DNA of 64,000 nucleotides from Escherichia coli (GTDB lineage Bacteria > Pseudomonadota > Gammaproteobacteria > Enterobacterales > Enterobacteriaceae): NCBI RefSeq assembly GCF_003018255.1, contig NZ_CP027440.1; one strand, written 5' to 3'. The notes beneath the pieces are model-generated. The model ran no database searches. It saw only the letters and a program-made list of their open reading frames with translations, and was not told the origin of the DNA. Shown here piece after piece: positions 4,737-57,528 of this stretch. The position numbers and the translations under genes were made by a program. Positions within the stretch are counted from its first letter, which is position 1; every line of letters starts with the position of its first letter.

Positions 4737-7099
<2,363 letters not shown>

Positions 7100-13219: not shown

Positions 13220-16462
<3,243 letters not shown>

Positions 16463-54676: not shown

Positions 54677-55504
54677 GTGGCGCGGATAAACCGTATTTCG
54701 ATCACGCTCTGTGCTTTACTTTTTACCACCCTGCCTTTAACGCCTATGGCCCATGCTTCAAAGCAAGCCAGGGAGAGTTCTGCTACTACTCATATCACCA
54801 AAAAAGCAGATAAAAAGAAAAGCACGGCAACCACCAAAAAGACCCAGAAAGCCAGCCAGAAAACAGCGAAAAAAGCCGCCAGTAAAAGTACGACCAAAAG
54901 CAAAACCGCTTCTTCCGTTAAAAAATCTTCCATTACCGCTTCTAAAAACGCCAAAACTCGCAGCAAACATGCCGTCAATAAAACGGCCTCAGCCAACTTT
55001 ACCGAAAAGTGTACCAAACGTAAGGGCTATAAATCGCATTGTGTGAAAGTCAAAAATGCCGCGTCAGGAACCCTTGCCGACGCGCACAAAGCGAAGGTGC
55101 AAAAAGCCACGAAAGTGGCAATGAATAAACTGATGCAACAAATTGGTAAGCCATATCGTTGGGGCGGCAGCTCACCGCGTACCGGTTTTGATTGCAGCGG
55201 CCTGGTTTATTACGCTTATAAAGATTTGGTGAAAATTCGTATTCCGCGTACGGCGAATGAAATGTATCACCTGCGTGATGCAGCACCTATCGAACGTAGT
55301 GAACTGAAAAACGGCGACCTGGTCTTCTTCCGTACTCAGGGACGCGGTACAGCCGATCATGTCGGCGTGTATGTCGGCAACGGCAAATTTATTCAGTCAC
55401 CGCGCACGGGCCAAGAAATTCAAATCACTTCTCTCAGTGAAGACTACTGGCAGCGCCACTATGTTGGCGCTCGTCGGGTAATGACCCCAAAAACACTTCG
55501 CTAA
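54677..55504 (+). CDS. mepH: NlpC/P60-family peptidoglycan DD-endopeptidase, GTG start
   Basis: Signal peptide, Lys/Thr/Ser-rich linker, C-terminal NlpC/P60 domain with catalytic Cys (FDCSGLV) and His. Confidence 0.88.
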   Translation: MARINRISITLCALLFTTLPLTPMAHASKQARESSATTHITKKADKKKSTATTKKTQKASQKTAKKAASKSTTKSKTASSVKKSSITASKNAKTRSKHAVNKTASANFTEKCTKRKGYKSHCVKVKNAASGTLADAHKAKVQKATKVAMNKLMQQIGKPYRWGGSSPRTGFDCSGLVYYAYKDLVKIRIPRTANEMYHLRDAAPIERSELKNGDLVFFRTQGRGTADHVGVYVGNGKFIQSPRTGQEIQITSLSEDYWQRHYVGARRVMTPKTLR

Positions 55505-55631
55505 AACTTTACCCTGTTGTTACGGCAACAGGGTAAGTTCATCTTTTGTCTCACCTTTTAATTTGCTACCCTATCCATACGCACAATAAGGCTATTGTAC
55601 GTATGCAAATTAATAATAAAGGAGAGTAGCA

Positions 55632-56213
55632 ATGTCATTCGAATTACCTGCACTACCATATGCTAAAGATGCTCTGGCACCGCACATTTCTGCGGAAACC
55701 ATCGAGTATCACTATGGCAAGCATCATCAGACTTATGTCACTAACCTGAACAACCTGATTAAAGGTACCGCGTTTGAAGGTAAATCACTGGAAGAGATTA
55801 TTCGCAGCTCTGAAGGTGGCGTATTCAACAACGCAGCTCAGGTCTGGAACCATACTTTCTACTGGAACTGCCTGGCACCGAACGCGGGTGGCGAACCGAC
55901 TGGAAAAGTCGCTGAAGCTATCGCCGCATCTTTTGGCAGCTTTGCCGATTTCAAAGCACAGTTTACTGATGCAGCAATCAAAAACTTTGGTTCTGGCTGG
56001 ACCTGGCTGGTGAAAAACAGCGATGGCAAACTGGCTATCGTTTCAACCTCTAACGCGGGTACTCCGCTGACCACCGATGCGACTCCGCTGCTGACCGTTG
56101 ATGTCTGGGAACACGCTTATTACATCGACTATCGCAATGCACGTCCTGGCTATCTGGAGCACTTCTGGGCGCTGGTGAACTGGGAATTCGTAGCGAAAAA
56201 TCTCGCTGCATAA
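55632..56213 (+). CDS. sodB: Fe superoxide dismutase
   Basis: 193 aa; recognised SodB ([36 protein letters not shown]...). Confidence 0.96.
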
Positions 56214-56262
56214 TAACTGATGGCAAATGCAACATTGCCTGATGCACTTCGCTTACCATGCC

Positions 56263-56295
56263 AACTCGGATGAAGCGTTAACACCGCATCCGGCA
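56263..56295 (-). repeat. degenerate REP-like element downstream of sodB
   Basis: Minus-strand GCCGGATGCGGTGTTAACGCTTCATCCG resembles the REP consensus GCCGGATGCGGCGTAAACGCCTTATCCG as I recall it. Confidence 0.45.
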
Positions 56296-56324
56296 AGATA
56301 AATCGCACGTTGCCAGCAACTGTA

Positions 56325-56353
56325 ACGCAGAAGGTTATCCTTCTGCGTTTTTG
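56325..56353 (+). terminator. rho-independent terminator of sodB
   Basis: ACGCAGAAGG-TTAT-CCTTCTGCGT 10-bp stem followed by TTTTT. Confidence 0.8.
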
Positions 56354-56358
56354 TGTAA

Positions 56359-57528
56359 TTAGCTGTTGGCAACGCAAACTGCCTCAGGTTGTTTTCTGGC
56401 TGACATAAACACCAGCAATAATGCCAGTCCCGCGACAATCGCCCCCATCACCGGCACAAAGCTGTATCCCAGCCCAGCGGAAATTACCGCACCACCAGCA
56501 GCAGCTCCCAGCGCATTTCCAAGATTAAAGGCACCAATATTGACTGATGAAGACAGACCAGGCGCTTCACTGGCGACACGCATCACGCGCATCTGTAACG
56601 GCGGTACGACCGCAAAGGTTGCAGCTCCCCACACCACCATGCTAATAGCTGCGCCGAACTCATTGCGGGCCAGGAACGGGATTGCTAGCATAATCACCAT
56701 CAGCAGCAACAAAAAGCCTTTCAACGTGCCGTTAACTGAACGATCTGCCAGTTTGCCGCCGAGATAGTTACCGATAGAGAATCCGACACCAATCAGCACC
56801 AGCATTGCCGTAACGAACACCGGCGTTGCGTGGGTAATACTTTGCAGTACCGGAGAGATATAGGTGTAGAGGGTAAACATTGCACCAGCTCCCAGTACCG
56901 TCGTCAGCAATGCAGACAGCACCTGCGGACGCATTAATACCGCCAGCTCTTTTTTCACTTCAGGTCGCGCCCCTGCGCCACCTTTAGGTAATGAGAAGAA
57001 CAGACTTACCATTGAAATCACGCCCAGCCCCGCCGTTGCCAGAAATGACATCCGCCAGCCGATGGTTTCGCCCAACCAGGTCGCTGCCGGAACGCCACCG
57101 ATATTTGCCAGGGTTAACCCCATAAACATAGTGGCAACTGCGCTGGCCTGTTTATGTTTTGGCACCACGCTTGCGGCCACAACTGAACCCAAACCAAAAA
57201 ATGCTCCGTGATTCAGGCTGGTCAAAATGCGTGAAAGCATCAGCGTCATATAATCCGGCGCGATGGCGGAAAGTACGTTGCCGAGCGTGAAAATCGCCAT
57301 CAGGAAAATCAACGCACTGCGGCGAGCACGATGAGAAAGTAGAAGCGTCATCAGCGGCGCGCCAACCATTACGCCAACTGCATAGGCACTGATTAACATT
57401 CCGGCAGCGGGAATCGAGACATCCACACCGCGCGCAATGACGGGCAATAAGCCCATTGGCGAGAACTCCGTTGTCCCGATACCAAACGCGCCAATCGCCA
57501 GCGCCAGCAACGGATAGTTAATTTTCAT
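56359..57528 (-). CDS. ydhP: MFS transporter (12-TM)
   Basis: 389 aa. Confidence 0.85.
   Translation of the reverse strand: MKINYPLLALAIGAFGIGTTEFSPMGLLPVIARGVDVSIPAAGMLISAYAVGVMVGAPLMTLLLSHRARRSALIFLMAIFTLGNVLSAIAPDYMTLMLSRILTSLNHGAFFGLGSVVAASVVPKHKQASAVATMFMGLTLANIGGVPAATWLGETIGWRMSFLATAGLGVISMVSLFFSLPKGGAGARPEVKKELAVLMRPQVLSALLTTVLGAGAMFTLYTYISPVLQSITHATPVFVTAMLVLIGVGFSIGNYLGGKLADRSVNGTLKGFLLLLMVIMLAIPFLARNEFGAAISMVVWGAATFAVVPPLQMRVMRVASEAPGLSSSVNIGAFNLGNALGAAAGGAVISAGLGYSFVPVMGAIVAGLALLLVFMSARKQPEAVCVANS

Follow-up and report, generated by a model that had tools for sequence, protein, structure and literature searches.

The 64,000-nucleotide stretch of DNA analysed here (the window) comes from Escherichia coli and contains the convergent genes sodB and ydhP, which are separated by an intergenic region of 145 bp. 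The sodB stop codon (TAA, 56211-56213) is followed directly by a second in-frame TAA (56214-56216), forming a tandem TAATAA, and the ydhP stop codon lies 9 nt from the hairpin of an intrinsic terminator. A first-pass annotation had flagged 56263-56353, a stretch 100% identical to strain 104, as a degenerate repetitive extragenic palindrome (REP) preceding the sodB terminator. The features of the locus are as follows.

55632-56213, plus strand: sodB coding sequence (Fe superoxide dismutase), from the ORF list and the RefSeq annotation of identical DNA
56216-56236, plus strand: left outer motif of a composite BIME, ACTGATGGCAAATGCAACATT, from its alignment with canonical elements at their left end
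56237-56265, plus strand: decayed z-type (short form) REP, GCCTGATGCACTTCGCTTACCATGCCAAC, matched to the z consensus
56261-56294 (core 56267-56294), minus strand: decayed y-type REP, with a consensus match above shuffle maxima
56295-56321, plus strand: right outer motif of the composite BIME, AAGATAAATCGCACGTTGCCAGCAACT, from alignment and an nhmmer match ending at 56321
56324-56352, plus strand: sodB intrinsic terminator, from a terminator scan, folding and K-12 Term-seq
56359-57528, minus strand: ydhP coding sequence (MFS transporter), convergent with sodB, from the ORF list and RefSeq annotation

An Rfam scan of 55400-56600 (E≤10) returned no match in the intergenic region. Upstream, the scan region contains a sub-threshold match to the SodB 5′-UTR thermometer (RF02775; 55557-55661, plus strand; 31.4 bits, E=0.0014; gathering score 98) that covers the sodB leader and start codon, and a 13-bp terminator-like hairpin lies 3′ of mepH (55508-55537, plus strand), just upstream of the sodB promoter region. 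In strain A30, one TAA of the sodB tandem stop is gone through a 3-bp deletion in the repeat (window 56211-56216; L098:362-367). The K-12 RefSeq record shows no repeat feature at sodB, which is uninformative, as that record carries no REP features anywhere; the K-12 REP at 5565-5596, between yaaX and yaaA, is likewise without one.

A decayed composite BIME downstream of sodB

On the minus strand, positions 56294 to 56261 read GCCGGATGCGGTGTTAACGCTTCATCCGAGTTGG, identical at 25 of 34 positions to the y-type REP GCCGGATGCGGCGTAAACGCCTTATCCGGCCTAC and, over the core (56267-56294), at 24 of 28 positions to the consensus. This match is the top score in the 64-kb window on both strands and exceeds the maxima reached in 100 composition-preserving block-shuffles (23 for the 34-mer, 21 for the core); the y consensus, TGCCGGATGCGGCGTAAACGCCTTATCCGGCCTAC, is used as quoted in PMC11208160 and occurs verbatim in K-12. 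Compared with canonical K-12 REPs, the remnant matches at 26 of 29 positions. The first-pass description of a degenerate inverted REP on the minus strand was therefore sound, and “degenerate” is a fair word, since the foot GGCCTAC has been lost: the sequence reads ...ATCCGAGTTGG where the canonical repeat has ...ATCCGGCCTAC, and GTAG (CTAC on the other strand) is absent. At the same locus GTAG is intact in K-12 and in a four-REP allele described below. A typical REP is an imperfect palindrome of 30-40 nt that can fold into a stable hairpin; the y remnant gives a weak 7-bp hairpin only (-8.2 kcal/mol, z = -1.1; equalled by 28 of 200 shuffles). Its tail and the adjacent z-type REP share 5 nt, so that no linker separates the two. 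Elsewhere in the window, a minus-strand ORF of 603 aa contains a weak y-REP-like match at 14861-14896 on the plus strand (24/34 to the consensus; profile E=0.0098); considered as a second element, this match was set aside as probably due to chance.

The z-type partner, which the first-pass annotation missed, matches the consensus GCCTGATGCGCTACGCTTATCAGGCCTAC at 24 of 29 positions (56237-56265), with a shuffle maximum of 21. Its foot has changed from CTAC to CAAC, and its own hairpin is lost (-1.7 kcal/mol alone, z = 0.16); in the K-12 and four-REP alleles its orthologue is the canonical REP1. The z REP on the plus strand and the y REP on the minus strand thus form an inverse, tail-to-tail, extragenic pair between the sodB stop codon and the terminator.

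The pair is embedded in a larger element. Canonical composite elements run in the order left motif (ACTGATGGCAAA.GCAA...), z REP ending in CTAC, a linker of ~33 nt, then GTAG and the y REP, and a right motif (...AACAAAGCGCAC.TTGTCA.CAATCTG). Eight canonical copies, drawn from six other loci, align with both outer flanks of the sodB element, and a profile HMM built from these copies, sodB not being among them, matches window positions 56216-56321 over model positions 1-147 (E=3.5e-16, 54 bits), with a central gap of ~40 positions at the linker and GTAG. The left motif aligns at the dppA-dppB, yddM-fdnI, yhaC, yeeZ-hisL and rhlE-ybiA elements, and the right motif is a rough inverted repeat of it; we take these flanks to be the motifs called “A” and “B” in the literature. 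A 36-nt query covering the left motif (56211-56246) occurs at a median of 6 places per E. coli genome, the other places being composite elements at dppA-dppB, yddM-fdnI, downstream of yhaC, yeeZ-hisL, rhlE-ybiA and one further locus. The region 56216-56321 is one decayed composite BIME that accounts for nearly all of the sequence from the tandem stop to the terminator. Alignment to the REP/BIME family, a check that the first-pass annotation had proposed, is thus significant, and textbook REPs with CTAC/GTAG occupy the same site in other strains. As to extent, that annotation saw the y REP and began too late, at 56263, so that it covered about one third of the element.

An AACTG...AACTG pair around the insert was considered as a target-site duplication and rejected, the bases being the element's own conserved terminal motifs, and no direct repeats of at least 14 nt were found flanking the sodB insert. 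On either side of the canonical composite BIMEs at yddM-fdnI and one further locus, a terminator-like hairpin is present as a direct repeat (34 nt, 82-91% identical, L102:565-598 and 743-776 and L100:1465-1498 and 1643-1676; 18 nt, 83%, L104:580-597 and 751-768). The flanking hairpin sequence differs by locus and looks like a duplication of a target hairpin upon insertion, not like part of the element; the sodB copy is without such a duplication. Several PLSDB records encountered in these comparisons (NZ_CP141089.1, NZ_CP134663.1, NZ_OL790696.1 and NZ_CP069933.1) have the size of a chromosome (4.8-4.9 Mb) or contain pieces of the E. coli chromosome, for which mislabelling or contamination is the probable explanation. 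A 24.8-kb linear “Klebsiella oxytoca plasmid”, for example, carries dppA-dppB with E. coli protein accessions.

Three alleles in E. coli

The sodB-ydhP intergenic region exists as three alleles in E. coli, all of which lack the long linker. Their counts refer to 5,425 complete E. coli genomes.

Window allele: two decayed REPs, abutting without a linker; 145-bp intergenic region; ~3,560-3,600 genomes (~66%)
Four-REP allele: four REPs; 234-bp intergenic region; 1,345 genomes (~25%)
K-12 allele: two canonical REPs joined as CTAC-12 nt-GTAG; 161-bp intergenic region; roughly 350-520 genomes (~7-10%)

The window and K-12 sequences are 89.5% identical over the 271 nt compared. Because E. albertii has the same layout as the window, that layout is presumably ancestral; the four-REP allele would then have gained ~89 bp inside the z REP, and the K-12 allele would have arisen when 73 bp were deleted between the two y REPs. 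Variation of BIME copy number between strains is a described property of these elements (PMC3333891).

The REP identity of the locus is independently certified by a mobile element. IS621 targets ATCAGGCCTAC in REPs, with a CT core (PMC11208160), and in K99B and at least four other genomes it is inserted exactly at ATCAGGCCT^AC of REP1 at sodB, making the four-REP allele a proven IS621 target. IS621 is a bridge-RNA-guided element of the IS110 family. In K99B it occupies L097:1645-2920 in the sodB-ydhP intergenic region of the four-REP allele, and the same junction is found in KO11FL, HBUT-L, hubt-sl and ST2350; the query that matches this junction also matches IS621 beside related BIME copies at other loci in ~1,250 genomes. 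At the corresponding position the window allele reads ACCATGCCAAC, with 3 mismatches that include the CT core. TnpA_REP, for its part, needs GTAG/CTAC and a stem mismatch (PMC3333891), and the GTAG/CTAC is absent from the window allele.

The sodB element can be set against described systems. The K-12 copy downstream of sodB is catalogued as REPv128ab (PMC10100675, Table 2); it shares its locus, outer motifs and terminator with the window allele but consists of two canonical REPs and a 12-nt linker within 161 bp, whereas the window copy is decayed and linkerless within 145 bp. The BIME-1/RIP layout comprises a z REP, a long L linker that often carries an IHF site, and a y REP (PMC3333891). With elements of this type (dppA-dppB, yddM-fdnI and rhlE-ybiA) the window copy shares the outer motifs, the order and orientation of z and y, and the palindromic layout, but it lacks the ~33-nt linker, GTAG and the IHF consensus. 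BIME-2 elements are tandem arrays of z and y REPs with a short S linker; their copy number differs from strain to strain, and they are gyrase targets. With BIME-2 and atypical BIMEs the locus shares a copy-number polymorphism (2 or 4 REPs), and the K-12 allele also shares the short linker; the window allele, by contrast, is linkerless, forms no tandem array and has its y REP in decayed form.

An older terminator and a diverging insert

The strong stem-loop and T-run that the first-pass annotation placed after the REP is present at 56324-56352. Its GC-rich stem of 11 bp (56324-56334 paired with 56339-56349) closes a TTAT loop and is followed by five Us (56348-56352) and then G; the free energy of the fold, -17.8 kcal/mol (z = -6.9), is equalled by 0 of 200 shuffles. 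With its 11 bp, 4-nt loop and 5 Us, this is a typical Rho-independent terminator and has nothing unusual about it. The mapping of the sodB 3′ end that the annotation had suggested exists in published form: three entries of a K-12 Term-seq dataset (PMC7815308, supplementary file 1) place a plus-strand 3′ end at position 1736114, the last U of the terminator run, equivalent to window 56352 and beyond the REPs. Inside the K-12 REP interval that dataset has no curated 3′ end. It follows from the position of this end that the BIME is transcribed within the sodB 3′ UTR and that the terminator sets the 3′ end. The K-12 hairpin and five-T run are identical to those of the window, and the tails differ from three bases past the T-run (window, TTTTTGTG; K-12, TTTTTGTT); the RNA 3′ end in the window strain should likewise lie at 56352.

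No terminator-like site was found on the ydhP strand across window 56324-56358, where the hairpin is without a U-run, and in the window strain the sodB hairpin is probably not an efficient bidirectional terminator. In relatives that lack the insert, an A-rich stretch before the hairpin would give a U-run on the ydhP strand and thus a possible bidirectional terminator; in Escherichia this stretch has been replaced by the insert. Adams et al. report a Rho-dependent termination region within ydhP (K-12 1736788, minus strand).

Among the matches listed, the insert at sodB is present in E. coli and in E. albertii, with the same size and layout as in the window, and no REPs occur at sodB in Citrobacter (two species), Enterobacter, Kluyvera, Pseudocitrobacter or Superficieibacter. 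All six of the insert-free taxa carry the same hairpin, ACGCAGAAGG-loop-CCTTCTGCGT, 3′ of the sodB stop codon, at a distance of 2-8 nt in five and of 33 nt in Kluyvera. Across eight Enterobacteriaceae taxa the hairpin, of 12 pairs in this alignment, is kept, with 8 of 12 pairs invariant and 3 of 12 showing compensatory changes. Since the insert-free relatives keep the hairpin and the hairpin is conserved, sequence comparison indicates that the terminator is ancestral and that the BIME was inserted before it in the ancestor of E. coli and E. albertii; Salmonella and E. fergusonii are absent from the matches listed, and the insertion is dated no more finely than this.

The two parts of the intergenic region have since evolved differently. 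Listed below are differences from E. albertii, together with pi calculated from 8 window-type E. coli sequences that were sampled non-randomly.

z REP remnant: 7/29 differences; pi 0.034
y REP remnant: 7/29 differences; pi 0.063
sodB third codon positions: 38/193 differences (19.7%); pi 0.026
Terminator: 0/22 differences in the stems, 3/4 in the loop; pi 0.007

The REP parts are thus 24% different from E. albertii. The REP pair diverges at about the synonymous rate and would then be neutral or nearly so; selection and function, we conclude, reside in the terminator. The left outer motif (window 56214-56236) departs from this pattern, having 1 change in 23 positions relative to E. albertii against the ~4.5 expected at the synonymous rate. 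The right motif (56295-56321) shows 10/28 differences from E. albertii, where its changes have shifted the register in which it pairs with the left motif.

Roles considered for the remnant

We posit, at a probability of roughly three in four, that the sodB element is a decayed BIME lying between the stop codon and an older terminator, co-transcribed with sodB and largely an inert fossil. A composite of z and y REPs was inserted between the sodB stop codon and the pre-existing terminator in a common ancestor of E. coli and E. albertii and has since lost its central linker and its GTAG/CTAC feet. Transcription of sodB would read through the element and end at the hairpin and U-run at 56324-56352, leaving the REP pair in the sodB 3′ UTR, where it could form a long imperfect hairpin. 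The targets of REP-acting factors, namely GTAG and the bulged stem (TnpA_REP), ATCAGGCCTAC (IS621) and the L linker (IHF), are gone, and the terminator would be the functional element that both defines and protects the 3′ end. The remnant probably alters the decay of sodB mRNA to a minor degree at most. Counted against the fossil reading are the fold of the insert, which is above most shuffles, the conserved left motif, and the appearance of K-12 sodB in a list of REP-containing transcripts. We found nothing in the literature on an sRNA from the sodB 3′ UTR or on a function of this 3′ UTR.

The strongest competitor, which we consider unlikely but worth keeping in view, is that the REP pair is a working mRNA stabiliser: a long hairpin would block the 3′→5′ exonucleases PNPase and RNase II after they had got past the terminator hairpin, the half-life of sodB mRNA would rise, and the three alleles would tune SodB differently. 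REPs are classic 3′ stabilisers whose decay needs RhlB and PAP I (PMC10100675), and that study of REP-dependent mRNA stabilisation places K-12 sodB, with REPv128ab, among its fluoride-responsive REP-containing transcripts. The insert is predicted to fold at -30.3 kcal/mol in the window (z = -2.3; 5 of 200 shuffles as good) and at -44.1 kcal/mol in K-12, the z REP, y REP and outer motifs being able to pair into one long imperfect hairpin that is predicted to be formable in all seven haplotypes compared. The conservation of the left motif, this hairpin and the K-12 listing together keep a modest stabilising role alive. Against them, the terminator hairpin already provides a 3′ barrier and is retained by insert-free relatives, the curated Term-seq ends in K-12 do not fall at the REPs, and the REP parts change at or above the synonymous rate. 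The long hairpin also lacks compensatory covariation (term +0.19, with a two-sided change in 1 of 33 pairs). A related suggestion, that the decayed BIME has been co-opted as a structured 3′-UTR module in which the left motif and long hairpin modulate sodB decay or RNase access, so that the three alleles give heritable differences in SodB among E. coli lineages, strikes us as distinctly improbable.

Little room is left for a role at the DNA level, in which a gyrase site (BIME-2 type) or an IHF site (BIME-1/RIP type) would relieve supercoiling between the convergent sodB and ydhP genes. The setting is suitable, between convergent genes and downstream of the highly expressed sodB; gyrase cleavage is reported in the literature to be enriched in a subset of BIME-2, mainly at y REPs, and related elements carry a long linker, often with an IHF site. 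The sodB copy, however, has few of the parts required: the long linker is absent from all three alleles, the intergenic region contains no match to the IHF consensus WATCARNNNNTTR, the y REP is without its foot and retains little of its stem, and neither sodB nor ydhP is named in the gyrase Topo-seq supplements. The gyrase- and IHF-associated functions that the first-pass annotation had entertained for such remnants are therefore mostly unsupported for this copy, in which the gyrase-preferred y REP is decayed and both the IHF linker and the IHF consensus are missing.

It is very doubtful, too, that ribosomes terminating on sodB are held back by a structured element just past the stop codon and that less SodB is made as a result. 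According to Liang et al. 2015, as reported in a citing paper, REPs lying ≤15 nt from a stop codon attenuate translation, and the outer stem of the predicted long hairpin begins 5 nt past the sodB stop, at 56218. That outer stem is short and interrupted, however, and translational attenuation is unlikely because the REP proper begins 23 nt past the stop (56237 as against 56213), beyond the 15-nt limit; the tandem TAATAA and the high abundance of SodB would also argue against strong attenuation. Finally, the notion that the REP resemblance is fortuitous and the stretch a unique spacer upstream of the terminator might draw on the degeneracy of the repeats (9/34 and 5/29 mismatches) and on the failure of the z copy to fold, but it is refuted by REP matches that both lie above all shuffles, by the profile match, by orthologous canonical REPs at the same site in other strains and by the REP-specific IS inserted at the locus.

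Much of what surrounds the fossil reading is established: the presence of REPs and BIMEs in 3′ UTRs, their variation between strains, the sodB terminator and the name of the K-12 copy were already known. The new details, namely the extent of the element, its family assignment and the frequencies of its alleles, are of little importance alone. They do show an element three times larger than the stretch that was flagged and belonging to a composite family with outer motifs, and they identify the K-12 allele as a minority form; since the decayed version is found in about two thirds of complete E. coli genomes, REP annotation based on K-12 is not directly transferable to them. The sodB locus offers, moreover, a natural allelic series in which the REP content of a 3′ UTR can be set against the expression of an abundant enzyme.
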